A stretch of DNA of 64,000 nt from an uncultured Thermoanaerobaculia bacterium. Its GTDB lineage: Bacteria; Acidobacteriota; Thermoanaerobaculia; Multivoradales; CAZRFU01. Where the stretch lies: NCBI GenBank assembly GCA_964599475.1, contig CAZRFU010000016.1:17619-81618 (forward strand), read 5' to 3'. A program made the translations under genes and the position numbers. How positions within the stretch are numbered: position 1 is the stretch's first letter; each line of letters opens with the position of its first letter. Under the pieces are notes generated by a model. The model made no database searches. It saw only the letters and a program-made list of their open reading frames with translations, and was not told where the DNA came from. Positions 1,628 through 57,500 of this stretch are shown piece by piece.

Positions 1628-3157
1628 ATGGTCTCCGAACGAGCACCACGTCACCTCGCGCGTCACCTCGCGGGCGCATTGACGATTTTCGCCGCCGGCA
1701 GTGTCTCAGCCCAGGAGATCGGCGTCGACGACTTTCGCATCAGCGCCATGGGAGGCAGCGGAGATAGTGCCTACACGGCGATCTACTCGTCGGTTGCCCA
1801 CAACCCCCTCGCCGAGGAGTACCTGGTGGTGTGGCTCGGCGACACCAACACCGGCGACGGCGACAACCACTACCAGATCTTCGGGCAGCGTATCGACGTC
1901 GCGACCGGTGCCGAGCTCGGAACCGACGACTTCGTGATCGCAAGCCTCGGCGGCCCCTTCGGATCGGCGCCGTTCGCCTGGGTGACGGTGGCTCACGGCT
2001 CCGGCCAGAACGAGTACCTGGTCGTGTGGTCGACGATCACCGGGCTCGGCAACGGCAGCGACTACGAGATCTTCTGTCGTCGCGTCGCCGCCGACGGCAC
2101 ACCCCTCGGCGTCGCGCTCCAGATCAGCCACATGCACAACCCGACCCAGCCGCAGAACGAGAGCCAGTACACCGCCACCGAGCCCGCCGTCGCCTACAAC
2201 CCGCTCGCGGACGAGTTCCTGGTGGTGTGGGCGGGCGACCATGGTGTCGGCGGACTGGTCGACGAGGAAGTCGAGATCTTCGGGCAGCGCATCAGTGCCA
2301 CGACCGGCCTCGAGATCGGCACCGACGACGTGCGCATCAGCGACGTCGGAGGCACCGGCAGTACCTTCTCGGATGCCCGCTCGCCCGACGTCACCTACAA
2401 CTCGATCGACGACGAGTACCTGGTGGTGTGGGCCGCCGACGATCCCGATGCGGGCACGGCCGACAACGAGCTCGAGATCTACGGGCAGCGCCTGACCTCG
2501 CTCGGCGGCGAGATCGGCGTCAACGACTTCCGCGTCACCACCCATGGCCCCGCCAACGAGCCGGGCTACTCCGCGCTCGAGCCCGCGGTCGCCTTCAGCC
2601 CGGATCACTCCGAGTACCTGGTGGTGTTCAGCGCACCCGAAGCCTGGTCGCAGGCGGTCGGACCCGGCTTCGAGATCTACGCCCAGCGTCTCGACGCGAG
2701 CGCAAGCGCACTCGGCGGCGCCTTCAGGCTGAGCGATGTCGGCGGCCTGGCGGAGCTCGCTTTCGACGCCGACACCCCCGATGTCGCCTATGCCCCGGCT
2801 TCGGAGCGCTGGATCGTCGTCTTCCGAGCCGACGACAACGTCGGCGGGCAAGTCGACGGCGAGCGCGAGGTCCACCTGCAGGAGGTCGATGCGGCAACCG
2901 GCGCCGAGGTCGGCGACAACGACGCCCGCGTCAGCGACATGGGCCCCACCGGCAGCACGATCTACCAGACCTCACTGCCCACCGTCGCTTGCGCCGCTGC
3001 GACCGAGTGCCTGGTGATCTGGCGCGGCGACGACAACGTCGGCGGCCTGGTCAACGACGAATTCGAAATCTTCGGCCAACGCTGGGCAACCACACTGCCG
3101 GCCTCGATCTTCGAGGACGGGTTCGAAAGTGGCGACACCTCGGCGTGGAGCCTGTAG
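1628..3157 (+). CDS. Secreted seven-repeat protein (putative beta-propeller) ending in a DGFESGDTSAWS tail
   Basis: AAGGAG lies 6 nt upstream of ATG 1628. The N-terminus is signal-like (LAGALTIFAAGSVSAQE). Seven repeats of about 60-70 aa each contain E[YF]LVVW ... EI[FY]GQR ... G. The C-terminus is IFEDGFESGDTSAWSL. Confidence 0.8.
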   Translation: MVSERAPRHLARHLAGALTIFAAGSVSAQEIGVDDFRISAMGGSGDSAYTAIYSSVAHNPLAEEYLVVWLGDTNTGDGDNHYQIFGQRIDVATGAELGTDDFVIASLGGPFGSAPFAWVTVAHGSGQNEYLVVWSTITGLGNGSDYEIFCRRVAADGTPLGVALQISHMHNPTQPQNESQYTATEPAVAYNPLADEFLVVWAGDHGVGGLVDEEVEIFGQRISATTGLEIGTDDVRISDVGGTGSTFSDARSPDVTYNSIDDEYLVVWAADDPDAGTADNELEIYGQRLTSLGGEIGVNDFRVTTHGPANEPGYSALEPAVAFSPDHSEYLVVFSAPEAWSQAVGPGFEIYAQRLDASASALGGAFRLSDVGGLAELAFDADTPDVAYAPASERWIVVFRADDNVGGQVDGEREVHLQEVDAATGAEVGDNDARVSDMGPTGSTIYQTSLPTVACAAATECLVIWRGDDNVGGLVNDEFEIFGQRWATTLPASIFEDGFESGDTSAWSL

Positions 3158-3254
3158 CTCGGCGACGCTGGGTTCCGCGGCGTGTTGCTCGACCCGCGTG
3201 CAGCGCCATGGTCGGCGCAATGACGCCGCGCTGGGCAACCGGCCTGCGGCCCAC

Positions 3255-4789
3255 TCACGGCACGGTGTTCGACCACGCCCAGGTGTTGCCAGTCTCGAAA
3301 CCGTCGGCAAAGAACCACGGGCAGCCGCCCGCGGTGTGCTCGACCGAGCCCATGTCGTTGGTGCCGTTGCCCTGTGGCCGCAACACGCCACGCTGATCCA
3401 TGAAGGTATTGCCGCCCGCGAGAGGGATCCCAGCGTCGATCGCCGGGCTGCTCGGGCTGAGATTGTGGCTGCGGGTGAGCTCCTCGGGGATCCCGACCGG
3501 GCAGGAAAAGCCGAGGGGCAGGATCTGGGCGTCGGTCTCGGGTTTGTTGCCGTTGGTCGCAAGCTCGCCACAGCTGATCCCAGACCACAGGCTCGCGCCG
3601 ATGTCCACTGCGGCGCCGCCTGCGATCGAGCACTGGTCGCCGCTGTCCGTTGCGCTGTTCAGAGCCCAGATCACGTTGCGGGCGTGCAACGTCGAGCCGA
3701 TCGCCCCGGTCGTGACGCCACCGCCAACGGCGGCCTGATTGTTGGCGATCGTGGTCATCCGCAAGGTCAAGGCGCCTTCGTTGTGGATACCACCACCCGA
3801 GCCGGCGCTGGTGTTGCCGGAGACCGTCGTGTTCTCGAGCTGGAGGGTCCCGAGATTGGCGACGGCGCCACCTCTCGCGGCGGGATCGCTCGCGACGTTG
3901 CCCGAGAAGGTGGACTCGCGCTGGAGCGACGATGACCCCGCTGTGATGAAGAAGCCCCCTCCCTCGGCGGCAGCATTGTCGGCGACCGTATCCCGGCTGA
4001 GTGAAACGCCGGAGGCGTTCTGCAGCAACACGGCGCCGCCCTGGCCGGCCGCCACGTTGAGCACGAACGAGCTCAGATCCAGAAAGCCCGAGGCGCTCGT
4101 GGCACGAACCGCACCGCCATCGCCACCGGCGGTGTTGTTGTCGAACGAGGATCCAAACACCGCGAGCTGGGTCGTGTTGGCGACATCGAGCGCGCCGCCA
4201 TGGCCAACTGCGGTGTTGTTGGTAAGGATGGTGCGGCTCAGGTCCACCCGCCCGCCGATGGCGGCGATGGCTCCGCCGTCGCCGTTGGCGTGGTTGCCGG
4301 CAAGAGTGCTCCACAGAGCGTGGACCACGCCACCACTCGCGAGCACGGCGCCGCCACTCCCGGTGGAGGTGTTGTTGGCCAGGATGGCTCGGTCGAGCTC
4401 GAGGTCACCACCGGGCTCCACCACCCCGCTCCACCGCCCGCTGCAACGCCGTCGACGAGGAAGATCTCTCGCATCGTGGCGACCGCCGCAGCGGCGACCA
4501 CGAAGTGCCGCGTCGTGCCGCCACCCGACAGTGTCACCTTGTTGTCCCCATCGAAAACCACGAAGGCCGTGATCGGCTTGGCGGCGGTCAGGGTGATCAC
4601 GATCGGGTCGGGGCCACAGTCGAAGGTGATCGTGCCACCGCCGGCGTGCGCCGTCGCGATCGCGGCATCAAGGTGGGACTCGGTGCATCCTCCAGGCGAG
4701 CCGTCGCCGACGACGGCGTTGGCGCCGAGGACCGGAGGGACGGCGAGCAGCAAGCAGAGGGTGAGGCAAGGGAAGTCGCGAGGTTTCAT
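3255..4789 (-). pseudogene. Beta-helix (choice-of-anchor-Q / Pmp-like) secreted protein split by a 1-nt frameshift
   Basis: ORF 4238-4789 supplies a signal peptide and an N-terminus collinear with the paralogue at 4786-6309 (AVVGDGS..CTE...GGG.ITFDCGP). ORF 3255-4424 supplies GGA[VI]/GGG beta-helix repeats, DQRG..RPQG and the DGFETGNTWAWS tail. The two frames join at the C4 run 4424-4427. One extra G on the coding strand would give ...GGGAGVVEPGGDLEL. Confidence 0.6.
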
Positions 4790-6309
4790 GGCGTAGTCGA
4801 GCTCCAGGAGTTGGTGTTGCCGAGATCAAAGTCGTCGGCGAAGAGGGCGAAACAGTCGCCGGCCTGGTACTCGACCGCCCCAACGTCACAGCCAAGGCCC
4901 TGGGGCCGCGGGACGCCACGCTGGTCGACCTGCGGGGCCAGGGCACAGGAGGCCGCGTCGATCGCCGGGCTCGTTGCCTCGATCGCGTGGGTAGGGGTTC
5001 GTTCGGTTGCCAGTCCAGTGCAGGTCCTCGCCAGGGCGGCGATCCCAGGATTGGTGTTGGGTTGGTTGCCGCTGCTCGTGCCGGTACCGCAGGTCGTGTC
5101 GGACCAGATGCTGAAACTCAGCCCGAGCGGCGCGGCGCCGAAGTTGCACTGCGAGTCGACAAGGCCGTTGTTGGATCGGTTTGCAACCAAGAGGCTGTTG
5201 TGGATCTCGAGCAGGCCGGCAGGCAAGTTGTCGATCCCGGCGCCGGGGTCGCGTGTGACGTTGCCGACGATCGTGCTGTTGACCACCATGGCGGTGCCAC
5301 TGTTGCTGAGGCCACCGCCCCCCAACGCCCAGTTGCCGGAAATGGTCGCGTTCTGCAGGGCCAGCGTACCGAGATTTTCGATACCGCCGCCGATCACCGC
5401 GCTGTTGCGCGACACCGTTGTCGATATCACCACGACCTGCGATGGCGTGTTGACTCCGAGTCCACCGGCGAGACCGGCCGAGTTGTTGGCATCGAGCCAG
5501 GAGTCGGTGATCGTGACGTCGCTGCCATCCCACACGTAGAGCCCACCCGCCTCAGCCGCGTCGTTGCCCCGGATCAGCACGCGGGTGAACTGGGTGAAGA
5601 ACGCGCCGCGCAGGGCGACTCCTCCGCCGGCGCCGCCGGCCGTATTCCCCTCGATCCGGCTGTCGATCACACCGACATTCGAAAACCACGCTTCGACGGC
5701 GCCCCCATCGGTTCCGGCGCCGTTGCCGGTCATCGTGCTCGATTGCACCACGAGGCCGCCGGGATAGAGGTTGATGCCACCTCCTCCTCCGACAGCCTCG
5801 TTGTCGCGGACATGGCTGTCGACGAGGGAAACGAAGAGATGGTTGCCGGCGATCGCACCGCCCCAGGAGGCGGAGATGTTGTCCTCGAGGGTCACCCCCT
5901 CGAGATGCAGTTGCACCGCAAGGTCGAGGGACGGGGCGGGAGCCCAGATCGAACCGCCGGGTGAGGCGCTCCCGAGCGTCAGGGTGAGATTGCGCAGCGT
6001 CACCTCGCTGTCGTCGAGAAGGCGAAAGTGCCGCGTGGCAAGGCCTCCGGAAAGGGCGATCAGATTGCCACCATCGATCGTGACCTGGTCGCCGAGGACC
6101 TTTTCGCTGGTGAGCACGATGGCGTGGGGAGCCGGCCCACAGTCGAAGGTGATCAGGCCGCCTCCGGCGTTGGCGGAGGCCACCGCCGCCGTCAAGGCCG
6201 CCTCGGTACAACTTGCAGACGATCCGTCGCCCACCACGGCGTCGGCGCCGTAGGTCGGCGCGACCAAGGCCACGGCGGCGGGAAGTACGAGCTGATGAAC
6301 CAGGCGCAT
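4786..6309 (-). CDS. Beta-helix (choice-of-anchor-Q / Pmp-like) secreted protein
   Basis: ATG 6309 is preceded by GGAGGA. Signal peptide MRLVHQLVLPAAVALVAPTYGADA. Many GGGI/GGAV turn motifs, then DQRGVPRPQGLGCDVGAVEY and the C-terminal FADDFDLGNTNSWSSTTP. Its TGA overlaps the ATG of the downstream gene (ATGA, 4786-4789). Confidence 0.85.
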   Translation of the reverse strand: MRLVHQLVLPAAVALVAPTYGADAVVGDGSSASCTEAALTAAVASANAGGGLITFDCGPAPHAIVLTSEKVLGDQVTIDGGNLIALSGGLATRHFRLLDDSEVTLRNLTLTLGSASPGGSIWAPAPSLDLAVQLHLEGVTLEDNISASWGGAIAGNHLFVSLVDSHVRDNEAVGGGGGINLYPGGLVVQSSTMTGNGAGTDGGAVEAWFSNVGVIDSRIEGNTAGGAGGGVALRGAFFTQFTRVLIRGNDAAEAGGLYVWDGSDVTITDSWLDANNSAGLAGGLGVNTPSQVVVISTTVSRNSAVIGGGIENLGTLALQNATISGNWALGGGGLSNSGTAMVVNSTIVGNVTRDPGAGIDNLPAGLLEIHNSLLVANRSNNGLVDSQCNFGAAPLGLSFSIWSDTTCGTGTSSGNQPNTNPGIAALARTCTGLATERTPTHAIEATSPAIDAASCALAPQVDQRGVPRPQGLGCDVGAVEYQAGDCFALFADDFDLGNTNSWSSTTP

Positions 6310-6392
6310 TGGGTTTCCTCCTCGAGCTGCTATTGGCTCGAACGGGAAATCGAGGGAGAAAGCGGACATGGCGCCCCTGCTAACATCTCCGC

Positions 6393-6968
6393 GTGTCAGC
6401 TCCCATCCCGGCCGGCGACCTCACCGCCCTGATCGAGGCTTGGGATGGCGGCGCGGGGGTGCCGGTCGACGAGCTGTGGCAGGCTGCCTATGCCGAGCTC
6501 AAAGCGCTTGCACGCTCGCGACTGCGGCGCCAGGGACCCGTGACACTGCTCGACACCACCGCTCTGGTCAACGAGAGCTACCTGCGGCTGGTGGGCGTCG
6601 GCCGCCTCCAGGTCGAGACTCGCGGCAAGTTCTTCGCCTACGCCTCGCGCGTGATGCGGTCGGTAGTCGTCGACCTCGCGCGCGAACGACTCACGACACG
6701 GCGTGGTGGCGGTGCCGAGGCGGTCACCTTCGACACGGACGCCGTCGACCGCCTGCAGTTCCCGGCGCTGGCCGAGCCGCTCGATGTCGATGCGGTGCTC
6801 GCGGAGCTGGAGGTGGTCGACCCGCGACTCGCGAAGGTCGTCGAGATGCGCTATTTCGCGGGCTACACCGAGGTCGAGATCGCGACGATCCTCGGCCTCA
6901 CCGAACGCACGGTACGCCGCGACTGGCACAAGGCGAAGCTGCTGCTGCGCACGATGATCGTTCGCTGA
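6393..6968 (+). CDS. ECF-type sigma-70 family factor (kinase-associated ECF43-like / TIGR02999-like)
   Basis: GTG start. N-terminal DLTALIEAW..G, TTALVNESYLRL (region 2), and a region 4 helix-turn-helix YFAGYTEVEIATILGLTERTVRRDWHKAKLLL. It ends 5 nt before the kinase ATG. Confidence 0.9.
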   Translation: MSAPIPAGDLTALIEAWDGGAGVPVDELWQAAYAELKALARSRLRRQGPVTLLDTTALVNESYLRLVGVGRLQVETRGKFFAYASRVMRSVVVDLARERLTTRRGGGAEAVTFDTDAVDRLQFPALAEPLDVDAVLAELEVVDPRLAKVVEMRYFAGYTEVEIATILGLTERTVRRDWHKAKLLLRTMIVR

Positions 6969-6973
6969 GGCCC

Positions 6974-9334
6974 ATGAACCGCCTACCATGCTCACCCGGC
7001 CAATGGCCCGAGCTCTCGCGGCTACTCGACGAGGCGCTCGAAAGTCATCAGCAGGATCGAGGAATATGGCTCGAGCGCGTCGGCCGAGAGCGGCCGGACC
7101 TCATCGAGGCCCTGCGAACGGTGCTCGAGGCCGAGGTAGGCGAGCAGGCCGATGCCGCCCAATTCGAGTCCCCGTCCTGGGATCTCCTCGATGACGAGGA
7201 TGCTCTTGGCCAGGGAACCGTCGTCGGGCCCTACACGCTCGAAGCCGAGTTGGGAGTGGGCGGGATGGGGACCGTCTGGAGCGCCCACCGCAGCGACGGC
7301 GCGTACCAACGCCGGGTTGCACTCAAGCTGCCCCACCTCTGCGGGCCGGGGGCGGATCTCCGGGCTCGGTTTCGGCGCGAGCGGGACATCCTCGCCCGGC
7401 TGTCGCATCCCAACATCGCGCAGTTTCTCGACGCCGGCGTTGCTGCCGACGGGCGCCCGTATCTTGCACTCGAGTTGGTCGAGGGGCGGTCGATTCTCGA
7501 GGCTGCTGGGTGCGCTCGGCTCAGCGTCGACGGGCGCTTGCGGTGGTTCCGGGCGGTGCTCGACGCCGTCGCCTACGCCCATGCCAGGCTCGTGGTCCAC
7601 CGCGACATCAAGCCCTCCAACGTCCTGGTCGGCGCCGCCGGCTCCGTCAAGCTGCTCGACTTCGGGATCGCCAAGCTGCTCGAGCCGACCGCCTCCGAGC
7701 GCGGCGGCGCCGCGCAGCTCACCCGCGCGGACGTCAGACCAGCGACTCCCGACTACGCCGCTCCCGAGCAGCTCGACGGCGGTGATGTGACCGTGGCGAC
7801 CGACGTGTGGGCGCTCGGTGCGCTGCTGTTCGAGTTGCTGACCGGTGGCCGACCTTTCTCCCGCGCCGAGCGTCTGAGTAGCCAACGCGACCGCTTCGTA
7901 CCGTTCTCCTCGCGCCGCGTCGACCCGACGCACGCTCGGGCGTGCGGCTTGTCGACGAAATCCCTCGCCAGGCGACTCGAAGGCGATCTCGACGCGATCC
8001 TCGCCAAAGCTCTCGCTTTCGAGCCGACCGATCGGTACGCCTCGGTCGAGGCATTCGCCGGCGACCTCGACCGCCACCTTGCTCTCCAGCCGATCGTCGC
8101 GCGGCGGCCGAGCGCATTGGTGCGGGCGCGCCTGTTCGCGCGCCGTCACCGAGTCGGACTGGTGTCGTTCGGCCTCCTCCTCGCGTCGGTGACCGCAGGC
8201 ATGCTCGGGGTACTGCTGCAGGCCCGGGCGACCTCGGCGGCCGCCCGGCGCGCCGAAGCGACCAAGGACTTCCTCGTCGAGGTCTTCAAAGGCAGCGACC
8301 CGCGGGTTGCGCGCACCAAGCCCCGCGGCGAGATCACCGCTCGAGAGCTGCTCGACATCGCGGCTCACGATCTCGAAGTCGGGTTCGAGGATGATCCCGA
8401 GACCCGGATCGAGCTGTTGGGGCTGACCGCCACGATCTACACCTACCTCGACGAGATCGGTGCCGCACGGAGGCTGGCCGAGATGGGACGGCTCGAGGGG
8501 CAGCGCCTGCTCGAGGCCGACGATCCTCGCCTGCTCGACCCTTGGCTTCTCGAGATCTGGCTTGCCCTCGAGGCCGGGGACCTCGAGTCCGCGCGGACAC
8601 GGCTCACCGAGGTCGACCGACACCTTACGGTCTACGGGCTCGATCACACGGTCCACCGCGCCGGTTACCACCTGGCCGCCAGCGACATCGCTGCGGCGCA
8701 GGGCGATCGAGACGGCCGGAAGCAAGAGCTCGAGCAGGCCCGGGCTCTTTATGCTGCGGTGGCTCCACGCGACTCAGGGCATGCCGCAGCGCTGTCGAAT
8801 CTCGGCCTGTTGCGTCTGGGGGGTGGTGAACCCACGGAGGCTCTGACCCTGCTCGACCGCGCCCTGACGGTGGCCCAGACTGCCACCAGCGATGTGGGTA
8901 CCGACCTCGCCCGGATTCACGCTCGTCGAGGCCGGGTGTTGCTGGAGCTCGCGCGCTTCGAGGACGCCCGGGAAGCGCTCGACACGGCTCTGGCGCTGTA
9001 CGCCGCGACGGTCGGCACAGACCATGTGACCACCTGGGCCCCGCGCGCCGCCCGTGCCCGAGCGGCAGCCTACCTCGGCCAAGCCATCGACGCCGACCGC
9101 GACCTCGGTTCTCTCGAAAGCCTCCCGGGCTGGCAGGAACCGCGTTTCTCGCGCTACCGTCAGGAGGCCAACTTGCACCGCGGCCTGGCTTTGGCCAGAC
9201 TCGGTCGGCAGCCACAGGCTGCGGCGATTCTCGCCGAGAGCGTCGCAAGCCTGGGCGACGATCCCGAGCTCGAAGCCGAGATCCGCTGGGCTCGGCTCGA
9301 GATCGCAAGCACCCGGTCCGACGCAGGTGGATGA
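6974..9334 (+). CDS. Ser/Thr protein kinase with one transmembrane segment and a C-terminal TPR array
   Basis: LGVGGMGTVW, VALK, HRDIKPSNVLV, DFGIAKL and APE motifs. TM segment VGLVSFGLLLASVTAGMLGVLLQA. Long TPR-like C-terminus. The listed ORF start at 6368 is an out-of-frame run over the sigma gene. Confidence 0.9.
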   Translation: MNRLPCSPGQWPELSRLLDEALESHQQDRGIWLERVGRERPDLIEALRTVLEAEVGEQADAAQFESPSWDLLDDEDALGQGTVVGPYTLEAELGVGGMGTVWSAHRSDGAYQRRVALKLPHLCGPGADLRARFRRERDILARLSHPNIAQFLDAGVAADGRPYLALELVEGRSILEAAGCARLSVDGRLRWFRAVLDAVAYAHARLVVHRDIKPSNVLVGAAGSVKLLDFGIAKLLEPTASERGGAAQLTRADVRPATPDYAAPEQLDGGDVTVATDVWALGALLFELLTGGRPFSRAERLSSQRDRFVPFSSRRVDPTHARACGLSTKSLARRLEGDLDAILAKALAFEPTDRYASVEAFAGDLDRHLALQPIVARRPSALVRARLFARRHRVGLVSFGLLLASVTAGMLGVLLQARATSAAARRAEATKDFLVEVFKGSDPRVARTKPRGEITARELLDIAAHDLEVGFEDDPETRIELLGLTATIYTYLDEIGAARRLAEMGRLEGQRLLEADDPRLLDPWLLEIWLALEAGDLESARTRLTEVDRHLTVYGLDHTVHRAGYHLAASDIAAAQGDRDGRKQELEQARALYAAVAPRDSGHAAALSNLGLLRLGGGEPTEALTLLDRALTVAQTATSDVGTDLARIHARRGRVLLELARFEDAREALDTALALYAATVGTDHVTTWAPRAARARAAAYLGQAIDADRDLGSLESLPGWQEPRFSRYRQEANLHRGLALARLGRQPQAAAILAESVASLGDDPELEAEIRWARLEIASTRSDAGG

Positions 9335-9451: not shown

Positions 9452-10057
9452 TCAGCCTGGGCGTGGTTCGAATCCGGTCAGCTCGAGATGCAACATCGCG
9501 CGAGCGGCCCGCCAGTCGCGCTTGACCGTCCGCAGCGAGACCGCTGTCGCATCGGCGATCTCCCCAAAGGTCAGCCCGCCGAAGAAGTGCCACTCGACCG
9601 TTTGGGCCAAGCGCGGGGCTGCGAGCTCCAGACGAGACAGGGCAGCATCCAGCGCCAAGAGATCTTCGATCGGGGCCGACGTGCCCGGCGCTGCGACGGC
9701 GATGGCGTCGAGGTCGATCTCAGGCTGACCACCACCACGTTTGCCTGCCTGGCGCCCGCGCGCGCGGTCGACCACCACGTGGCGCATCGCGCGCGAAGCC
9801 ACTGCGAACAGGTGTTGACGATCTTCGAATGGTAGCGCCCCTCGGCGCGACAGCCGCAGGAACACTTCGTGCACGAGCGAGGTGGCGGACGGCCCCGCAA
9901 CTTGGGCCCGCAGGTGGCGACCCGCCAAGGCCCGGAGGTCGGCGTAGATCAGATCGAACACCTTGCCTGCAGCATCGCGGTCGCCGCCGCGAGCGGCTGC
10001 CAGGAGCGCGGTCACGGCGCCCTGGTCGCCTTCGGGGGAATCGCCGGCCGCACCCAT
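9452..10057 (-). CDS. ECF-type sigma-70 family factor (second copy, kinase-associated)
   Basis: Only the last 201 aa of ORF 9452-11290 look real: AVTALLAAARGGD, TSLVHEVFLRL and FFGGLTFGEIADATAVSLRTVKRDWRAARAML. ATG at 10057. The RBS is weak, so the start is moderately uncertain. Confidence 0.85.
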   Translation of the reverse strand: MGAAGDSPEGDQGAVTALLAAARGGDRDAAGKVFDLIYADLRALAGRHLRAQVAGPSATSLVHEVFLRLSRRGALPFEDRQHLFAVASRAMRHVVVDRARGRQAGKRGGGQPEIDLDAIAVAAPGTSAPIEDLLALDAALSRLELAAPRLAQTVEWHFFGGLTFGEIADATAVSLRTVKRDWRAARAMLHLELTGFEPRPG

Positions 10058-10108
10058 TCCGAAGATTCTAGCGCCGCGTCCGACATCTCCTGTAGCGTTG
10101 CCGCACCG

Positions 10109-13072
10109 ATGGCCACCTCCCGGCAGGAAGAGCGAGCGCGCTGGTTCGTCGAGCTGTGCGACCTCGAGCTGCGGGAGCGTGACCGGGCTCTCGAGGAGAT
10201 CGCCGCGAGCGATCCCCAGCTGGCGGCCGAGGTCGAAAGGCTGCTCCGCCTCGATCGGCAATCGAACGGGCCGATCGAAGCCCTGCGCGAGGAACTTGGA
10301 CCGGCCCTGCACTCGGCGTTTTCCGAACTGGAGGTGGCAGACCTTGCGCCGCCGGAACGGCTCGGCCCGTGGCGCCTGGGCGAAAGACTCGGTGCGGGCG
10401 GCATGGGCGAGGTCTGGGCCGCCGAACGCGCCGATGCCGGCTTTGCCCAGCGCGCTGCCATCAAGCTGGTCCGCTCGAACATGGCGAGCGAGGAGGTGGT
10501 GCGCCGCTTCGCCATCGAACGCCGGGCTCTCGCACGGCTCGAACATCCCGGCATCGCCCGGCTGCTCGACGGCGGTGTCGCTCCCGATGGTCGCCCGTGG
10601 TTCGCCATGGAGCGGGTCGACGGCATCGCGATCACGACCTTCGCCGACACCAACGCACTCGACCTCGGGTCGCGATTGCGACTCTTCCTCGCCGTCATCG
10701 AGTCCGTCGCCTTTGCTCACCAGGCGCTGGTGGTCCATCGCGACCTCAAGCCCTCGAACATCCTGGTGACCGCGGCCGGCGCGCCCAAAGTCCTGGACTT
10801 CGGCCTGGCCAAGCTGCTCGACCCGGCGGAAGGCAACCAGGACCAGCCGGAGCTCACGCACACCAACCTGCTGGCGCTGACCCCGGCTTACGCCGCTCCA
10901 GAGCAATTCCTCGGCGAGCCGACCACCACCGCAACCGACGTCTACGCCCTGGGCGCGGTTCTGTTCGAGCTCCTCACCGGGCAATTGCCGCACCAGCGGC
11001 GAAGCCCTTCGCTCGCCGTGCTGCTCGAAGGGCTCGAGCGCGAGACCCTCGAGCGCCCTTCTCAGCGCCTCAGGCGTTCGGCTGCCAGCGAACGCCCGGA
11101 TCGAGCCGCCAGGCTGCTCGAGGGAGACATCGACACCATCGTGCTGCAGGCTCTCGCCCGCGAACCGGCCCGCCGCTACCCAACCGTGGCGGCGCTCGGC
11201 GCGGACATCCGCGCCCACCTCGAAGGGCGGCCGATCGCGGCACGGCCGGCCTCGGCCTTCTACCTCTTCTCCAAGTTCCTCGGGCGGCACCGAGCGGCGG
11301 CGATCGCTGCGCTGACCGTGGTGTCGGCCCTGAGCGTCAGCCTGATCGTCTCGTTGCAGCAGACTGCGGTCGCTCGCGCCGCCCTCGCCACGGCACAGAG
11401 CGAGGCCCGGCGCGCCGAGAGGGTCAAGGACTTCCTAGTGTCCGTGTTCGAACAGGCCGACCCAACCCACACCCAAGGAGCCGACGTGCCGGCGCGACAG
11501 ATCCTCGCCGAGGGCGCGGCCCAGCTGAGGACCAACCTCGCCGACGAGCCCGAGGTCCGCGCCGAGCTCTACGACACCGTCGCGCAGATCCAGACCAGCC
11601 TGGGATTGCTCGAAGAGGGGCTGGCCAACGCCGAAGCCGGCGCCGCAGAGCGCAAGCGGCAGTTCGGTGACAGCTCGCGCGAGTACGCCCGCAGCCGGGT
11701 GACGGTGGGCCGGGCCAAGCTGCAGCAGGCCCAGTTCGCTGGCGCGCTGGAGGACTTCGACCATGCCCTATCGGTGTTCGAAGCCAGGGTGGATACCCGC
11801 TCGCTCGACTTCGCGAAGGCACTCTCCGGTCGGGCCGAGGCCCGTCTGATGCTTGGCGACCCGGAGCAGGCGCGCACCGATCAGCTCGCCGCCAATGCGA
11901 TCTATGCCGCGGCCCTCGGGCCTGAGGATCGGGAAACCCTCGGCCAGCTCTCGAATCTCGCCGTGATCGAAACCCGGTCCGGAACCGTCCTCGAGGCCGC
12001 GCGGATCTTCCGCCAGGTGCTGGCCGGCCTCGAACGCGTCGAGCCCCCGGACTCGGCACGTGTGCTCGATGTCGTCCTCAATCTCGCCACCGCCCTCGAC
12101 ACCGCCGGCCAGAGCACAGAGGCCTTGGCGCTGTTCGAACGCGTCGTCGCCGGTCGCCGGAGGATCTACGGGGACCAACACCCCCTGCTTGCCGAAGCGC
12201 TGGTGATCGCCGGGCTCAGGATGTCGCGAGCCGGCCGTGGCGACGACGCACTTCGAGCGCTCGACGAGGCCCGCGCGATCTACGCACCGCTCGATCACCC
12301 GGAGCTCGGTACCGTCGACAACTTCAGCGGCCTGACCTACGCCGACCTGGGGCGGTTCGCCGAAGCCGAGGCGGCGTTCGCGGCAGCGTCGGCTCGGTTC
12401 TCACGGGACCTCGGCCCCGCGCACGTGATGACGGTTTCCGCCAACGCCAATCGGGCCAACGTGGTGAGTGAGCTCGGTCGCGAGGACGAGGCAGTCGAGC
12501 TGTTCGCCGAGGCGGTCGCCCAGCTGCGTGTGCTCCAGCAGCTCGACAACCCGAGGCTGTTGCGCATGCGACTGAACTGGGGAGCGGCGCTGCGCCGCGC
12601 CGGACGCTTTGCCGAAGCGCGGTCGGTGCTGGAAGCCGCGATGGCGGCCGCGCGCGAGCAGTTCGGAGGCGACCATCTGCGCATTGCCGAGGGCTCGGTC
12701 GAGCTCGCCCGCCTCGAGCTGGCTGCGAGAACGTCCACCGCTCCCGAGGTCGCTGCCTCACTGCTCGCCGAGGCGGAGCGGATCGCCGAGAACAACCCGC
12801 CCAACGCCGCCTTGGCCCGCAATCTGGCGGCAGCGAGGGCGGAACTGCGGGAGGCAAACGGTTCCTCGGCACCCATCACGGCCCCGACCACCCTGCCATC
12901 GACCCCGCTCGAACCCGTCCGAGAAGATCAGGCCATTGTCGAGGCTGGGGGACGGGCTCTACCATCTCCTGGCGTGCGGCGCGATCGAGGTGGAGATCAG
13001 CTCCGGCTCGGTGTCCGCGGTAGACGTCTTCGCCGACCGGCTGCGATTCGAGCTGCTGGATCTGCTGCGTGA
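10109..13072 (+). CDS. Ser/Thr protein kinase with one transmembrane segment and a C-terminal TPR array (3' end uncertain)
   Basis: ATG 10109 (MATSRQEERARWF). LGAGGMGEVW, AIKL, HRDLKPSNILV, DFGLAKL and APE motifs. TM segment AAAIAALTVVSALSVSLIVSL, then TPR repeats. The last ~60 aa are low-complexity and overlap an out-of-frame DGFESGDTSAWS tail. Confidence 0.85.
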   Translation: MATSRQEERARWFVELCDLELRERDRALEEIAASDPQLAAEVERLLRLDRQSNGPIEALREELGPALHSAFSELEVADLAPPERLGPWRLGERLGAGGMGEVWAAERADAGFAQRAAIKLVRSNMASEEVVRRFAIERRALARLEHPGIARLLDGGVAPDGRPWFAMERVDGIAITTFADTNALDLGSRLRLFLAVIESVAFAHQALVVHRDLKPSNILVTAAGAPKVLDFGLAKLLDPAEGNQDQPELTHTNLLALTPAYAAPEQFLGEPTTTATDVYALGAVLFELLTGQLPHQRRSPSLAVLLEGLERETLERPSQRLRRSAASERPDRAARLLEGDIDTIVLQALAREPARRYPTVAALGADIRAHLEGRPIAARPASAFYLFSKFLGRHRAAAIAALTVVSALSVSLIVSLQQTAVARAALATAQSEARRAERVKDFLVSVFEQADPTHTQGADVPARQILAEGAAQLRTNLADEPEVRAELYDTVAQIQTSLGLLEEGLANAEAGAAERKRQFGDSSREYARSRVTVGRAKLQQAQFAGALEDFDHALSVFEARVDTRSLDFAKALSGRAEARLMLGDPEQARTDQLAANAIYAAALGPEDRETLGQLSNLAVIETRSGTVLEAARIFRQVLAGLERVEPPDSARVLDVVLNLATALDTAGQSTEALALFERVVAGRRRIYGDQHPLLAEALVIAGLRMSRAGRGDDALRALDEARAIYAPLDHPELGTVDNFSGLTYADLGRFAEAEAAFAAASARFSRDLGPAHVMTVSANANRANVVSELGREDEAVELFAEAVAQLRVLQQLDNPRLLRMRLNWGAALRRAGRFAEARSVLEAAMAAAREQFGGDHLRIAEGSVELARLELAARTSTAPEVAASLLAEAERIAENNPPNAALARNLAAARAELREANGSSAPITAPTTLPSTPLEPVREDQAIVEAGGRALPSPGVRRDRGGDQLRLGVRGRRLRRPAAIRAAGSAA

Positions 13073-13256
13073 CGGCTTCGAAAGTGGCGACACCAGCGCA
13101 TGGTCGCTCGCGGTGCCGTAGCCGCGGCCATCCGGCCTGCGGGCTATCATCTGCTCGCGGTGACCGAGATGCCGAGCGCGGACTCGCCATTCGCAACGGT
13201 CGCGGCGCAGGCCGAGAGCAGAGAAGCCGACGAAGGCCCGGCGGGTTCAGCCGAGT

Positions 13257-17203: not shown

Positions 17204-19608
<2,405 letters not shown>

Positions 19609-19609
19609 C

Positions 19610-21142
19610 TCAGCCCACCTTGGCCTTCGGATTCTCGACCAGGAAGCGGTCGCGGATCTCGCCGAGGGCCGCGATGATCTTCTCGTCGAGCTCCTTGTCG
19701 ATCGCCTTCTTCTCGCGTAGGGCCGCGAGCAGGTCGGCCTTCTCCTCGCGGAAGAAGCGGTGCATCGCCGCCTCGAAGGCGAGCACGGACTTCACCTCGA
19801 TGGTGTCGAGGAAGCCCTTGGTGCCGGCGAGGATCGAGAGCACCTGGAGCTCGACCGCGAGTGGCGCATACTGGCCCTGCTTCAGGATTTCGACCAGCCG
19901 TTGACCACGAGCGAGCTGGGCCTGCGTCGCCTTGTCGAGGTCCGAGCCGAACTGCGCGAAAGCCTGCAGCTCACGGAACTGGGCGAGCTCGAGACGCAGC
20001 GTGCCGGCGATCTTGCGCATCGCGGTGATCTGGGCGTTGCCGCCGACGCGCGAGACCGAGATGCCGACGTTCAGCGCCGGACGCACACCCGAGAAGAACA
20101 GGTCGCTCTCGAGGTAAATCTGACCATCGGTGATCGAGATCACGTTGGTCGGGATGTAGGCCGAGACGTCGCCCGCCTGGGTTTCGATGATCGGCAGCGC
20201 GGTCAGCGACCCGCCGCCGTTCTTGGTCGAAAGCTTGGCGGCGCGCTCGAGCAGGCGAGAATGCAGGTAGAAGACGTCGCCCGGATACGCCTCACGGCCG
20301 GGCGGACGGCGCAGCAGCAGCGACAACTCACGATAGGCGACGGCCTGCTTGGACAAGTCGTCGTAGATCACCAGGGCGTGGCGGCCCGAATCCATGAAGT
20401 ACTCGCCGATGGCGCACCCGCCGTAGGGAGCGAGGTACTGCAGCGGCGCGGGCTCTGAAGCCGAGGCTGCGACCACGATGGTGTGGCCCATCGCGCCGTA
20501 CTCTTCGAGGGTCTTGACCACCTGGGCGATGGTCGATCGCTTCTGGCCGATGGCGACGTAGATGCAGATGACGCCGCTGTCCTTCTGGTTGATGATGGTG
20601 TCGACGGCGACCGCGGTCTTGCCGGTCTGGCGGTCGCCGATGATCAGCTCACGCTGGCCGCGTCCGACCGGGATCATGGCGTCGATGGCCTTGATGCCGG
20701 TCTGCAGCGGCTCTTTGACCGGCTGACGATCGATGACGCCGGGCGCGATGCGCTCGAGTGGGTACCGCTTGGTGGTTTCGATCGGGCCCTTGTCGTCGAT
20801 CGGCCGACCGAGCGGATCGACCACCCGTCCGATCATCGCGTCGCCCACCGGCAGCTCCATGATGCGGCCGGTGCGGCGCACCTGATCGCCTTCCTTGACC
20901 AACCGCGAGCTGCCGATCAGCACGGCGCCGATCTGGTCTTCTTCGAGGTTGAGGGCGATGCCGAACACTCCGTTGGGAAACTCGAGCATTTCGCCCGACA
21001 TCGCCTTCTCGAGGCCATAGACGCGGGCAATACCGTCGCCGACGTTGAGAACGGTACCGACTTCGGCGAGGTCGATGTCCGCCTCGTAGCCCGCCAGCTC
21101 CTTTTCCAGGATCGCGGTGATCTCATCAGCCTTGATATGCAT
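19610..21142 (-). CDS. atpA: F1 ATP synthase alpha subunit
   Basis: [11 protein letters not shown] Walker A and full-length collinearity with AtpA. Confidence 0.97.
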
Positions 21143-21175
21143 ACAGGTGCTCTCCGTAGAAAAAGGGGCTGGCGC

Positions 21176-21715
21176 TCAGGCCTGCGCGAGGCGCGCCGAA
21201 AGGCGCTGCAGCCGGCGCCTGAGGCTCGCATCGAAGACTTTGCTGCCGACCGTCGCCACGAAGCCGGCCATCAGGCTCGGATCGGTCGAGGTCTCGATAT
21301 CGACGGGGCTGCCGACCGCCTTAGCCAGACCGCTGCGCAGCGAAGCCAGTTGCTCGGCAGTGAGTGGCGTGGCGCTTCTGACCTCGGCCTTGACCGTGCC
21401 GAGCGCCCGCCGCAGGAGAATCTCGAGGCCGTCGGCGATTTCCGCCAGCCGCCCTAGCCGGTAGTTGCGTGTCAGCGTGGCAGCCAGGCGCCGGGTGATC
21501 GGACCGCTTCCCAGCTTGGCGACGACCTGGTCGATCACCGCCAGCTTGGTCTCGAGCGGCACGCCGGGGTTCGCAGCGGCCCGCGGCAGGGCCGGATTCT
21601 CGGCGAAGACTGCTGCCAGGGCTCGCAGCTCGGCCAGCACCTGCTGGGCGGCCGTGGTGCTGCCGGCTACTTGAAAGACCGCCTTGGCGTACGGACGAGC
21701 TACCCGGCCGATCAT
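21176..21715 (-). CDS. atpH: F1 ATP synthase delta (OSCP) subunit
   Basis: 179 aa. YAKAVFQVA N-terminus. Operon position. ATGA overlap with atpF. Confidence 0.85.
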   Translation of the reverse strand: MIGRVARPYAKAVFQVAGSTTAAQQVLAELRALAAVFAENPALPRAAANPGVPLETKLAVIDQVVAKLGSGPITRRLAATLTRNYRLGRLAEIADGLEILLRRALGTVKAEVRSATPLTAEQLASLRSGLAKAVGSPVDIETSTDPSLMAGFVATVGSKVFDASLRRRLQRLSARLAQA

Positions 21716-22278
21716 GCGCTTTTCCTCTCGAGGCCGGCGACGCCGTCGTCGAAGAGCCGACGCCGGGTCGCATCGTCGAGCTCGCCCGCGAGCCTGGCAG
21801 CGGCAAGCTCAGCGGCGAGCGCTGCGGCGTGACGAGTGAGCTCTGCCCGAGCCTGCTCGATACGGTGGTCCATCTCGGCATTGGCCTGGTCCACGACCCG
21901 CTGGCGCTCGACCTCGGCGGATGCCAGGATTTCCTCCCGCTCGCGCCGGGCATCCGCGTCACCCTTGGCGGTCAGCTCGGCGATCTCGCGCTCGAGCTCG
22001 GCAATCGCGCCGCTGAGCCGTTCCTCGAGACCGGCCACCTGACTCTCCTGCCGACGCGCGAGCTCGAGGCTCTCGCGGATCGCCACGCTGCGCGCGTCGA
22101 GGAAGGCGAGGATCTTGGGAACCGCAAACTTGAAGATCGCACCGAGGAAAATGGCCAAGTTGATCGACAGGAAGATCCAGACCGGCAGGCCGAGCCAGGT
22201 CCCGCCACCTCCGGCCGCCAGGGCCGAGGGGGCAACGCCCAGCACCACTGCGGCAAACGCGAAGCGCCGGGCCGACAT
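21712..22278 (-). CDS. atpF: Fo ATP synthase b subunit
   Basis: One N-terminal TM helix followed by a long charged coiled coil. ATG 22278 overlaps the upstream stop (TGATG); an alternative GTG start lies at 22281. Confidence 0.8.
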   Translation of the reverse strand: MSARRFAFAAVVLGVAPSALAAGGGGTWLGLPVWIFLSINLAIFLGAIFKFAVPKILAFLDARSVAIRESLELARRQESQVAGLEERLSGAIAELEREIAELTAKGDADARREREEILASAEVERQRVVDQANAEMDHRIEQARAELTRHAAALAAELAAARLAGELDDATRRRLFDDGVAGLERKSA

Positions 22279-22700
22279 CACGCCACCCTCCCGAGGAGGC
22301 GCCGCACCATGTCGTCGGCGATGCGTTCGGCGCGCGCCGCGAGCACCCCGCGCTCGGCAGCGACATCCGCCTCGAGCCGGTCGCGCACCTCGTCGAGCTT
22401 GGCACGGGCGGCCTTCCGCGCCTGGTCGACCAGGGCGGCCTTTTCGGCTTCGGCTTCGCGCCGGGTCGCCTCACGCCGGCGAGCGATCTCACGCCGGGCC
22501 TCGGCCAAACGCTCGCGCTGGGCGGCAAGGCCGGTTTCGAGTTTCGACGAAGCGGCTTCGAAGCGCGTGTGCGCAGCGGCGATCGTCGTTTCCCGCTCGT
22601 CGAGCAAGCGAGTGATCGGTCCAAAGAAGGACCATCTCAGGATCGCATAGACGACCCAGAAGATCGCCATGACGACCAGCAAGCTGGCATCGAATTCCAC
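22278..22700 (-). CDS. atpF2: Fo ATP synthase b' subunit
   Basis: GTG 22700 with GGAG 8 nt upstream. VEFDASLLVVMAIFWVVYAIL TM helix, then coiled coil. The listed start at 22829 gives an implausible leader. Confidence 0.7.
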   Translation of the reverse strand: MEFDASLLVVMAIFWVVYAILRWSFFGPITRLLDERETTIAAAHTRFEAASSKLETGLAAQRERLAEARREIARRREATRREAEAEKAALVDQARKAARAKLDEVRDRLEADVAAERGVLAARAERIADDMVRRLLGRVA

Positions 22701-22819
22701 GGACGGACTCCGCTCGGGTTGTTGACCGAAAAAAGGCTGAGAATGCTCGGCGTCGAGTCTCGACCGGAGAAGTCGAGAGCGGCACGACGCGCAGCCGGCC
22801 GCAGCCTGAGAGCTGCCGA

Positions 22820-22848
22820 AACTTAGCATCGGCCGCCGCGCTGGTCAA
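22820..22848 (-). promoter_or_regulatory. Candidate sigma70-type promoter for the atp operon
   Basis: On the minus strand, TTGACC (22848-22843), a 17-nt spacer, then TAAGTT (22825-22820). About 120 nt upstream of the atpF2 start and directly after the RDD-gene hairpin. Confidence 0.35.
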
Positions 22849-51537: not shown

Positions 51538-51948
51538 CTAGCCTTCCGGCTTCGGGTCGCCGCCGGCCTCGGAATCGCTCTCGGTGCCGTCCGCTTCGTC
51601 GACGATCTTGGGAGCGGCTCGGAAGACCGGAGTGAAACGCTCGCGGATGCCGTCGAGGGAGATGCTCTCGACGTAGTACCAATAGGCGCGGCGCGGATCG
51701 ATGGTGCGATCGACGAAGACGTAGGCCTGTGGTTCGTCGACGGTTCCGGCGCCGGGAATCGGCGTTTCGGTGAGGCGCTCGAACGGGCCTTCTTCGGCGT
51801 CGCCGCGGTAGACGTCGAAGCCGAAGTTCTCGACCTCACTCGCGGTCTTCCACTTGAGCGTGTTGGTGTACTCGGTCACCTCGTCTGCGACCGCCGAGGC
51901 GGCGCTCAGCAGCCCGAGCGCGAGCAGGGCCAGGAACTTGTTGCGCAT
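51538..51948 (-). CDS. Small secreted protein with an FN3/Ig-like repeat
   Basis: Signal peptide MRNKFLALLALGLLSAASAVA. LKWKTASEVENFGFDVYRG......YVFVD....YWYYV pattern. TGATG coupling to the C25 peptidase gene. Confidence 0.7.
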   Translation of the reverse strand: MRNKFLALLALGLLSAASAVADEVTEYTNTLKWKTASEVENFGFDVYRGDAEEGPFERLTETPIPGAGTVDEPQAYVFVDRTIDPRRAYWYYVESISLDGIRERFTPVFRAAPKIVDEADGTESDSEAGGDPKPEG

Positions 51949-54574: not shown

Positions 54575-57500
54575 TCACACCCACTCGGCGCACAGCAGTT
54601 CCGCCTGGGCCAGCACCGTCTTGACCGCTTGGTCCTGGAGATCCGGCGGGTAGCCCCAACGATTGAGGATGCGTTTGACCATCACCCGCATGCGTGCGCG
54701 GGCGCTTTCGCGGACGGTCCAGTCGATGGTGGCGCTCTTCCTCACCTGGGTGATCAGCTCGGCGGCGATCGCGCGCAACTTCTCGTCACCCATCGCCTGC
54801 ACCGCGCTGTCGTTGGTGGCGAGCGCGTCGTAGAAGGCGATCTCGTCGTCGCTGAGACCGAGCGCTTCGCCGCGTTTCCCGGCGGCTTCGAGGTCCTTGG
54901 CGAGCTTGATCAGCTCTTCGATGACTTCCATCGTCGAGATCGCGCGGTTGTGGTACTTGTTCAGCGTTTCCTTGAGCTTTTCGCTGAAGACCTGGCTCTC
55001 GACCAAGTTGCGCTTGCCGCGCACCTTGAGCTCGTCTTCGAGCAGCTTGCGCAGGAGCTCGGCGGCGACGTTCTTGTGCTGCAGGCCGCGGACCTCGGCG
55101 AGGAACTGGTCGCTCAAGATCGAGATGTCGGGTTTCTGCAGACCGGCGGCGGTGAACACGTCGATCACTTGGCCGTCGGTGGTGATCGCCTTGCTCACCA
55201 ACTGGCGGATCGCCGCGTCGATCTGTTCGGGGGTCTTGCCGCTCCCTGAGCCACCCTTGGCGAAGGCCGCTTGCAGCGCCTGGAAGAACGACACGTCGTC
55301 GCGGATCGTCGTCGCCTCGTCGGTTGCCGCCGCGAGCGCGAAGGCACGCGAGAGCTCCATCACCACCCTGGCCCACCGTTGTTGACCGTCCGGCTGCGCC
55401 AGGATGTGCTCGCGGCCGGCGGGAATCAACGCGAGGCGTTCGCTCGGCGAGCCGCTGATCCAGCGGCTCCAATCGAAGCCGTTCAGCATCGAGCAGGCGA
55501 CCTCGTGCTTCTCGAGCATCACCGCAATCGCGGCAGCCGTGTCGAAGGTCGGATCACCCTTGCCGCCGCTTTCGGTGTAGGTCGCCAGTGCCCGTTTGAG
55601 CTGATCCGCGAGCCCGAGGTAGTCGACCACCAGGCCGCCGGGCTTGTCGCGAAACACCCGATTCACTCGTGCGATCGCCTGCATCAGGCCGTGGCCGTGC
55701 ATCGGCTTGTCGACGTACATGGTGTGCAGACACGGCGCATCGAAGCCGGTCAGCCACATGTCGCGCACGATCACGATGCGGAAGGGATCTTTGGCGTCTT
55801 TGAAGCGCGTCGCCATCCGCCGCCGACGGTCTTTGCTGCGGATGTGCGGTTGCCACGCAGGGCCGTCGTCGGCGCTGCCGGTCATCACCACCTTGACCAC
55901 ACAGCTGCGGTCCTTTTCGGCCTCGGCATCGTCGCCGACACTCGCCCATTCGGGGCGAAGCGCGATCAGCGCGTCGTAGAGGTCGACGCAGATGCGCCGG
56001 CTCATGCACACCACCATCGCCTTGCCGTCCATCGCCTCGAGGCGCTTCTCGAAGTGCGCCACCAAGTCCGCCGCGATCAACGCGATGCGTTTCGGGTCGC
56101 CGACCAAGGCTTCGAGCGCCGCCCACTTGCTCTTGAGCTTCTCGCGGTGGGTCGGCTCTTCGCCCTCGGTGATCTCGTCAAACTCGTCGTCGAGCTTGGG
56201 GACCTCGGCGGCGTTGAGGCTGAGCTTCGAGATCCGGCTTTCGTAGTAGATCGGCACCGTCGCCTGATCCGCCACCGCTCGCTGGATGTCGTAGATCGAG
56301 ATGTAGTCGCCGAACACCACCCGCGTGTTGGCGTCGGCGAGCTCGATCGGGGTGCCGGTGAAGCCGATGTAGCAGGCGTTCGGCAGCGCGTCGCGCAGGT
56401 TGCTCGCAAAGCCGTACGACAACGCGCCGGTCTTGGGGTTGACCTTGGCGCCGAAGCCGTATTGGCTGCGGTGTGCTTCATCGGCGATCACCACGATGTT
56501 CTGCCGCGCACTCAGCACCGGCATGGCTTCGCCCTGCTCCGGCAGGAACTTGTGAATGGTGGTGAAGACCACGCCGCCGCTCGCGACCGTCAGGAGCTCG
56601 CGCAGCTGCTCACGGCTGCCGGCCTGCACCGGCGTCTGCCCGAGCACGTCGGCGCAGCGCTGGAACTGGCCGAAGAGCTGGTCGTCGAGGTCGTTGCGGT
56701 CGGTCAACACCACCAGCGTCGGGTTCTGCATCACCGGGTGGCGTACCACTCGTGCGGCGAAGAAGAGCATCGAAAAGCTCTTGCCGCTGCCCTGGGTGTG
56801 CCACACCACCCCGGCGCGGCGGTCGCCCGGCTGGCCGCCGCGCATCCGCCCGGCCCAATAGGTGCCCGGCGTTTCCTTCGCCTCGTCGGCTCGCGCCAAC
56901 CCACTCGCCCGCACCGTCTCCTCGACCGCGGCGTTGACCGCGTGGAACTGGTGGTAGCCGGCGATGATCTTGTGCAGCGCCCCCGAGTCCGGATCCTCCT
57001 CGAACACGATGAAGTGCTGCAGCAGCTCGAGGAAACGCCGCTGGTCGAACACTCCGCGGATCAACACCTCGAGCTCGAGCGCATTCGCCGGCGCGTCGCC
57101 CTCGCCGTCGACCGTGCGCCAGACCTTGAACCACTCCTGGTTCGCCGTGAGCGACCCCATCCGCGCCTGCAGTCCGTCACTCACCACCAACACCGCGTTG
57201 TACTGCAACAGCGACGGAATTTCGGCCTTGTAGGTCTGCACCTGCGCGTAGGCGCTCCAGATCGTCGCGTTTTCATCCGCCGCGTTCTTGAGCTCGATCA
57301 CGCCGAGCGGCAGCCCGTTGACGAACACCACCAGATCCGGCCGGCGGCTGTGCTGGCCCTCGATCACCGTGAACTGGTTCACCACCAGCCAGTCGTTGGC
57401 GGCGGAATCGGTGAAGTCGACCAGCCGCACGTGGTCGCCGGCGATCGACCCGTCCAGGCGGCGGTATTCCACCTGCACCCCGTTGCGCAGCAGCTTGTGG

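Follow-up and report, generated by a model that had tools for sequence, protein, structure and literature searches.

A conserved 19-residue tail on unrelated exported proteins of Thermoanaerobaculia, a probable envelope address or docking tag

The window analysed here is a stretch of 64,000 nucleotides from an uncultured Thermoanaerobaculia bacterium (contig CAZRFU010000016.1, assembly GCA_964599475.1, positions 17,619 to 81,618). It encodes four copies of a short peptide motif, hereafter the tail. The window was translated in six frames, and a loose regular expression run over all frames of the 64 kb found no fifth copy. The consensus across the four copies is [ILF]-F-x-D-G-F-E-S-G-D-T-S-A-W-S-x-T-V-P, with the stop codon 1-4 residues further on. 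A preliminary description of this DNA had claimed that a shared tail sits on unrelated secreted proteins; the six-frame translation confirmed this, and a back-translated DNA pattern with up to three mismatches gave three matches in the window, where 0.00 were expected from 100 shuffles. The further claim that the motif is followed by neither a transmembrane (TM) helix nor a basic cluster holds for all four window copies.

Copy 1 (3107-3154, plus strand) reads IFEDGFESGDTSAWSL followed by TAG and forms the C-terminus of the open reading frame (ORF) 1628-3157. It lacks the last three residues (xVP), a truncation that is also found in a few other genomes, and a convergent gene ends about 100 bp beyond it. 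Copy 2 (3258-3314, minus strand), FFADGFETGNTWAWSNTVP and a stop, closes ORF 3255-4424. Copy 3 (4789-4845, minus strand), which is the most divergent of the four, reads LFADDFDLGNTNSWSSTTP before the stop and closes ORF 4786-6369. Copy 4 (13062-13118, plus strand) reads LLRDGFESGDTSAWSLAVP, again with a stop directly behind it.

The first carrier (1628-3157, plus strand) is an exported protein of 509 amino acids with a signal peptide and seven repeats of about 66 residues, in agreement with its earlier portrayal as propeller-like. No Pfam or NCBIfam family could be assigned to it, and no database record of the protein itself was found. Its repeats follow the pattern DDFRIS...EYLVVW...EIFGQR, and three metagenome fragments (P0033, P0039 and P0075) combine this repeat family with the tail. 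The third carrier (4786-6309, minus strand) is an exported beta-helix protein with a choice-of-anchor Q domain at 4864-4998; its open frame reaches 6369, and the Met at 6309 is the probable start. The second carrier is split. Its C-terminal part (3255-4424, minus strand) holds a beta-helix with Chlamydia-PMP repeats and a choice-of-anchor Q domain at 3339-3476, while its N-terminal part (4238-4789, minus strand) lies in a different frame and has a signal peptide. Since the N-terminal part is 51% identical to residues 36-142 of carrier 3, we regard carrier 2 as a frameshifted paralogue of carrier 3; the C-terminal part is 34% identical to residues 154-527. The frameshift and the paralogy had both been proposed before. 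Clear signal peptides are present in the three intact carriers of the window. In carriers 2 and 3 the tail stands about 25 residues past the NCBIfam choice-of-anchor Q domain, and homologues of this domain elsewhere have no tail at the end or end differently. Among the choice-of-anchor Q / DUF11 homologues of other lineages we observed a second C-terminal ending without a TM helix, ...[VLI]YLP[LIM][VI]x[RK](xx)-stop, on P0123, P0136, P0139, P0141, P0149, P0157, P0160, P0163 and P0174, which may represent another unnamed tail class.

The motif of the fourth copy is real, as had been reported, yet it is not the ordinary end of a secreted protein. This copy and the Ser/Thr-kinase ORF 9869-13072, at whose 3' end it lies, are read in different frames. 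The GC content at third codon positions (GC3) marks the kinase frame as coding up to about 12,905-12,950, close to a G-run, and the tail frame as coding from there on. The tail-frame coding segment (12905-13121, plus strand) resembles the end of a jelly-roll domain plus the tail: the roughly 35 residues upstream are similar to the last jelly-roll strands, as they are before other tails. Because the segment is out of frame, has neither a start codon nor a signal peptide of its own and is jelly-roll-like upstream, copy 4 either has been joined by a frameshift to the periplasmic end of the kinase or is what is left of the 3' part of a former carrier gene. The two apparent frameshifts within coding sequence, at 4238-4424 in carrier 2 and at about 12,905-12,955 at the G-run of the kinase/tail junction, are either homopolymer assembly errors or signs of pseudogenisation.

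Beyond the window, a profile of the four tails was searched against 5.8 billion proteins and gave 583 matches. The 120 best are short fragments, and nearly all of them end in ...[IL]F[AS]DGFESGDTSAWSxTVP behind unrelated upstream sequence. In species-representative genomes, the exact DNA pattern for DGFE[ST]GDT[ST]AW[ST] was found in at least 119 stretches with at least 131 matches. About 90% of the loci listed belong to metagenome-assembled genomes (MAGs) of Thermoanaerobaculia or Acidobacteriota, so that the suspected lineage specificity is borne out; a few are labelled Gemmatimonadota, Polyangiaceae, Kangiella or 'Deltaproteobacteria'. Among the matches listed, the stop follows exactly four residues on in 88 of the 130 that have one, and within eight residues in 113 of 130, against 4% under uniform placement (P ~1e-137); the motif is thus not equally common at internal positions. 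Up to at least 11 exact matches occur in a single MAG. In line with the earlier suggestion of a model-based search, a profile of 33 tails was run against 1.84 billion cluster representatives; at E<=1e-3 it matched 6,897 proteins, a number that includes the long, jelly-roll form of the motif described below.

An alignment of 185 unique tails showed that the conserved unit is exactly 19 residues long, with no conservation upstream of position -19, and that 15 of the 19 positions are at least 88% conserved. From -19 to -1 the residues are I/L, F (96%), x, D, G, F, E, S, G, D, T, S, A, W, S, x, T (65%), V (78%) and P (91%), where the core positions were chosen by the search pattern and only -19, -18 and -3 to -1 lay outside it. 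The consensus module can be written as [IL]-F-x-DGFESGDTSAWS-x-TVP. The alternating residues F-18, F-14, W-6 and V-2 lie on one face, which is hydrophobic and would fit a beta-hairpin that packs against something. Synonymous codons vary freely, Ser being encoded by both TCN and AGY, and the 60 nt past the stop are not conserved; therefore selection acts on the peptide and not on a DNA repeat. A repeated DNA element or read-through was ruled out on the same grounds, stop usage being ordinary apart from a weak excess of TAG. This codon ends 45% of the tail-bearing ORFs compared with 33% of the other ORFs of the same loci (L002-L120; P=0.03), and the C-terminal Pro ahead of the stop may be relevant to termination.

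To describe the proteins that bear the tail, we clustered 705 ORFs from tail loci. The largest cluster comprises S8 subtilases with a MAM domain, of which 30 of 39 members carry the tail. Other carriers are giant Big_9/cadherin/PKD proteins, FG-GAP proteins, an MtrC-like multihaem cytochrome, DUF1028 proteins and beta-helix proteins. These folds are unrelated, yet all are of extracytoplasmic type, and the proteins are named 'hypothetical protein' at NCBI. The proposed enrichment in signal peptides was found as well: 54 of 73 complete carriers were signal-peptide-like compared with 189 of 402 other ORFs (P=2e-5), by a crude heuristic that is positive on 47% of the background. A co-occurring protease, transporter or sortase, which the preliminary description had thought worth seeking, did not emerge: in the 119 tail loci no protease, sortase, transporter or secretion gene recurs beside the tail genes. 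The untailed genes that do recur there encode Ser/Thr-kinase-TPR proteins (6 loci), extracytoplasmic function (ECF) sigma factors of family PF07638 (4 loci), ABC-F proteins and sulfatases.

The position of the tail is not absolute. The window copies are all C-terminal, as was stated for every case, but about 12% of the copies in general are N-terminal, internal or tandem. Copies directly past the signal peptide occur in L114, P0343 and P0360, and copies between domains or within a loop in L021, L112, P0303, P0308 and P0309. Tandem pairs end P0314, P0315, P0319, P0323, P0324, P0327 and P0392, and in P0301 two copies precede the S8 domain. The internal copies retain the whole 19-residue unit with x[TV]VP, and the tail therefore does not depend on a free carboxylate. 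In one MAG (CAWDGW010000008.1, locus L044) the tail is followed by PALFGDGPLVNGMLLVLMVAGAAVMRLKER and a stop, that is, by a TM helix and a basic cluster, so that this protein is a hybrid of the tail and a classical anchor.

Moreover, the motif is not confined to the tail: the tail is overwhelmingly C-terminal, but the same motif also begins jelly-roll domains in other phyla. The top-scoring database proteins contain two to five copies spaced 190-290 residues apart. In this long form, a repeated jelly-roll domain (P0299, P0306, P0307, P0310, P0320 and others) opens with [IVL]FxDGFESG[DNS][LF]SAW[ST] as its first strand. It is found in other phyla and on phage contigs; four of five matches on viral contigs are of this kind. 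Starting at profile position 1, the domain resembles PF14099 (Polysacc_lyase) at a score below threshold. Stand-alone tails have T behind GD in 64 of 67 copies, the long form usually has L or F there, and some long-form copies contain the exact DGFESGDTSAW. A ConA-like jelly-roll domain, distantly PF14099/CBM_4_9-like, thus shares the signature [IVL]F-x-DGFESG-[DNS]-x-S-A-W-[ST] on its N-terminal strand but continues for a sandwich of 190-290 residues, whereas the tail has only xTVP and a stop four residues past the motif and does not belong to this domain. Since the motif is identical to the first strand, the tail looks like an orphaned jelly-roll strand that was turned into a portable module.

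Several known C-terminal signals invite comparison. PEP-CTERM, LPXTG, GlyGly-CTERM and MYXO-CTERM each consist of a short motif, a TM helix and a basic cluster. Like the tail, these tags (with exosortase, sortase and rhombosortase as the enzymes of the first three) are lineage-wide and stand at the C-terminus of unrelated exported proteins, and the tail takes the slot behind choice-of-anchor domains that such tags have. Unlike them, the tail stops without TM helix or basic cluster, with L044 as the single exception; in the four window copies and in the 113 of 130 listed copies the stop lies 0-8 residues past the motif. No sortase, exosortase or rhombosortase was seen in the 64-kb window or in the tail loci of 8-22 kb. 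The C-terminal domain (CTD) of type IX cargo is a folded beta-sandwich of about 70-100 residues. It resembles the tail in being a C-terminal signal on Sec-exported proteases and adhesins that lack a TM anchor, and a peptidase of the C25 family similar to its processing enzyme PorU is conserved in the tail lineage. The tail differs in its unit of 19 residues, unconserved upstream and without a match to the CTD model or the Por_Secre_tail hidden Markov model, and in a lineage outside Bacteroidota.

Dockerins have about 60-70 residues and two Ca2+-binding loop-helix (F-hand) repeats of about 22 residues each. They are likewise short, conserved, acidic and Gly-rich modules, mostly C-terminal on unrelated secreted enzymes and occasionally internal, N-terminal or duplicated, and the tail would, like them, be read by a common receptor and not by a membrane enzyme. 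The tail is, however, a single 19-residue unit that is not internally duplicated, its predicted structure is beta, no cohesin-like partner is known for it, and it has no Pfam match at E<=10. The beta-signal of outer-membrane proteins ends with an aromatic residue (F/W/Y) on the amphipathic last strand of the barrel, whereas Pro is terminal in 91% of the tails and the carriers have folds of soluble type. Type I secretion substrates lack an N-terminal Sec signal and usually contain RTX repeats. The window carriers have signal peptides and no RTX domains, and the signal-peptide-like share among carriers given above points the same way. The tail thus differs from known lineage tags in the lack of a TM anchor, in its length, in its invariance and in its origin from a domain fragment.

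In keeping with the earlier statement that the tail fits no named sorting tag, it matched no model in Pfam and NCBIfam release 20.0, neither with whole proteins (E<=1 in NCBIfam) nor with tails alone (E<=10), so that identity with a named family was rejected. Against PDB sequences only a chance-level match to HasA was obtained (E ~0.2). A literature search on the motif strings returned no relevant paper, and none was found for Thermoanaerobaculia together with 'sorting signal'.

Taken as a sequence feature, the tail is probably an undescribed envelope address or docking tag. It would act as a portable 19-residue module on Sec-exported Thermoanaerobaculia proteins, mostly at their extreme C-terminus. 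The 19-mer is nearly invariant on both faces and is carried by unrelated exported proteins, and we therefore argue for one common reader. Such a single shared partner in the envelope would set the extracytoplasmic fate of the cargo, which we infer to be retention at or attachment to the cell surface. The free tail would be flexible and, once folded as a beta-hairpin, would present a single hydrophobic face (F-18, F-14, W-6, V-2), adding itself as a strand to the receptor much as the motif serves as first strand in the jelly-roll domains. We tentatively lean towards this non-covalent docking, which we hold to be more likely than cleavage while stopping short of calling it probable, because copies that stand in tandem, at the N-terminus or internally still comprise the complete unit and because the motif derives from a sandwich strand. 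The last 200 residues of carrier 3 were modelled with AlphaFold2 from 36 aligned sequences. The beta-helix and the choice-of-anchor Q region reached a predicted local distance difference test (pLDDT) score of 80-95, and the tail was left unpacked and without secondary structure at a pLDDT of about 50. This model is consistent with an exposed tag.

Several points weigh against a docking tag. The low pLDDT of the tail is partly due to an alignment with few tail-bearing homologues. In a small sample, about 1.2 Mb from related loci, no jelly-roll receptor without its first strand turned up, and no receptor-like gene recurs next to the tail genes in the 119 loci. The C-terminal bias of 87% and the distance of exactly four residues from the stop would likewise be compatible with a cleaved signal or with one that requires its C-terminus to be free. 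Finally, the evidence is computational and comes from MAGs only.

A candidate reader lies in the same window. The gene at 51948-54491 (minus strand) encodes an exported Peptidase_C25 protein of 847 amino acids (E 7e-74), and translationally coupled to it is a gene for a secreted Ig/FN3-like protein of 136 amino acids (51538-51948, minus strand). The best NCBIfam match of the C25 protein is the type IX sortase PorU (NF033707) with 206 bits, below the equivalog cutoff of 420 bits, followed by PorU2. Its AlphaFold model (pLDDT 87.6) was compared with known structures by Foldseek; the best hit was latent PorU (6za2, E 1e-32) over the whole length with about 965 aligned columns, whereas gingipains matched the catalytic domain only (E 1e-16 to 1e-17). 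The model therefore has the multidomain fold of PorU. The protein has 847 residues compared with 1,081-1,083 in PorU chains and no match to a CTD, the domain that PorU itself retains and that binds PorV, and its C-terminus is a beta-sandwich followed by a disordered tail. Its orthologues, about 40-45% identical, bear the names Thermoanaerobaculia or Acidobacteriota, and the window protein is on record only on short metagenome contigs. The 136-residue protein, for which no family assignment was found, has a homologue in 58 of 80 metagenome C25 loci and is more conserved (54-73% identity over full-length matches) than the peptidase (about 40%). Judged by these comparisons, the operon encodes a PorU-like protein in Acidobacteriota, beyond the known range of type IX secretion. 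A DUF2142/PMT_2 membrane protein is encoded in the window at 58836-60125.

It has been demonstrated that PorU cleaves the C-terminal signal of type IX cargo and joins the cargo to anionic lipopolysaccharide (A-LPS) (PMC4560394, PMC8545088). By analogy, the tail could be a cleaved sorting signal, with the C25 protein and its 136-residue partner transferring the cargo to a glycolipid or polysaccharide. The whole-length match to PorU, the established role of that enzyme and the similarity between tail cargo and type IX cargo speak for this, as do the orthologues in the tail lineage, one of which (P0224) shares a 1.52-Mb contig with the tail loci L027 and L033. The C25 genes often lie amid genes for glycosyltransferases, PMT_2 (GT-C) and ABC-2 proteins, sulfotransferases and DUF1329 proteins (L121-L127, P0191, P0225), and in two orthologues the peptidase is fused with a glycosyltransferase domain of family GT1. 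Eight tails were found on 6 of the 80 C25 metagenome contigs, some only 0.1-2 kb away; most sequence on these contigs is by construction within a few kb of the C25 gene, and because the contigs are so short this adjacency is not distinguishable from chance and no enrichment can be claimed. On the other side, no C25 gene was found in the 119 tail loci and no tail in seven long C25 loci, the protein scores below the PorU cutoff and carries neither a CTD nor the tail, and N-terminal, internal and tandem copies are a poor fit to C-terminal cleavage and transfer. Moreover, no further type IX component (core machinery such as Sov/SprA, PorK-N and PorV) was seen in the sequence available, and the type IX secretion system is reported only from Bacteroidota (10.1101/031039). 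Tails and C25 genes co-occur at the level of a shared contig or lineage only. We consider cleavage unlikely on balance, and the link between the C25 operon and the tail a lead rather than a finding.

Less probable still is a role in translocation across the outer membrane, with the tail as a signal that the type II or an undescribed machine recognises in the periplasm and need not remove. The carriers are Sec-exported enzymes, adhesins and a cytochrome that one would expect outside the cell, there are at least several to a dozen exact matches per genome among the matches listed, and the tail follows a choice-of-anchor Q domain. This is countered by L044, in which a TM helix and a basic cluster come after the tail, and by copy 4, which abuts an inner-membrane kinase; neither protein could be exported. 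Secretion genes do not recur next to tail genes in the loci, and to our knowledge there is no linear type II secretion signal. A slightly poorer prospect, in our view, is a mini-structure that needs no partner, for example a Ca2+-binding hairpin or one capping an edge strand, inherited from the jelly-roll and kept for stability. Elsewhere the motif forms an integral part of jelly-roll domains as one of their strands, many tails follow a last strand of jelly-roll/MAM type such as ...DDV.I, and the acidic residues D-16, E-13 and D-10, spaced along the tail, are possible metal ligands. Tails are, however, also found behind beta-helix, propeller and peptidase ends, where there is no sandwich to complete, AlphaFold leaves the tail unpacked from the preceding domain, and if there were no common reader, it would be difficult to see why both faces are nearly invariant in unrelated carriers. 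That the tail is an artefact of assembly, gene calling or a translated DNA repeat is suggested by at least two apparent frameshifts in the window and by the many database matches that are short gene fragments; its presence in hundreds of independent assemblies from several sources, the free synonymous variation beside unconserved flanking DNA and the strong GC3 coding signal of the tail frame effectively refute this.

The docking tag thus remains the reading we prefer. A more far-reaching proposal would be an undescribed system of Thermoanaerobaculia for protein sorting or surface display, with dozens of tagged Sec-exported proteins per genome and a tag without TM helix that evolved from a jelly-roll first strand, read either by strand-complementation docking or by a PorU-like C25 sortase and its 136-residue partner outside type IX secretion. 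As a joint claim this is possible, and we think it rather doubtful that all of its parts hold.

Lineage-wide C-terminal tags have repeatedly led to envelope machinery, namely sortases, exosortases, rhombosortases and type IX secretion. The present tail is unusually long for a tag without anchor, unusually invariant and unannotated in Pfam and NCBIfam, and its carriers include proteases, adhesins and an MtrC-like cytochrome from a class that occurs worldwide but is essentially uncultured. A model of the tail would mark the surface or secreted proteome among thousands of 'hypothetical' MAG proteins, and would provide a handle for finding the machinery by peptide bait or phylogenetic profiling. 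If the C25 protein were the reader, surface attachment by C25 sortases would extend beyond Bacteroidota. The tail may also serve as an example for studying how part of a folded domain is converted into a portable signal.

The tail genes of the window are bracketed by genes for Ser/Thr-kinase-TPR proteins and PF07638-type ECF sigma factors (2-1495, 6393-9334 and 9452-13072), that is, by one partial kinase and two sigma and kinase pairs. A pairing of this kind beside tail genes recurs in 4-6 of the 119 loci of other genomes and could reflect regulation or simply the abundance of these genes. At the far end of the window (54575-64000) the GC content drops from about 0.69 to 0.62. This region encodes a type I restriction-modification system, with HsdR at 54578-57763 and HsdS at 62795-63904, and an AAA_15/AAA_21 ATPase at 60903-62954, which suggests a defence island. 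An intact F-type ATP synthase operon (b, delta, alpha, gamma, beta, epsilon) is located at 17204-22829 on the minus strand, and an identical AtpD is encoded on the JGI metagenome contig 3300048592.

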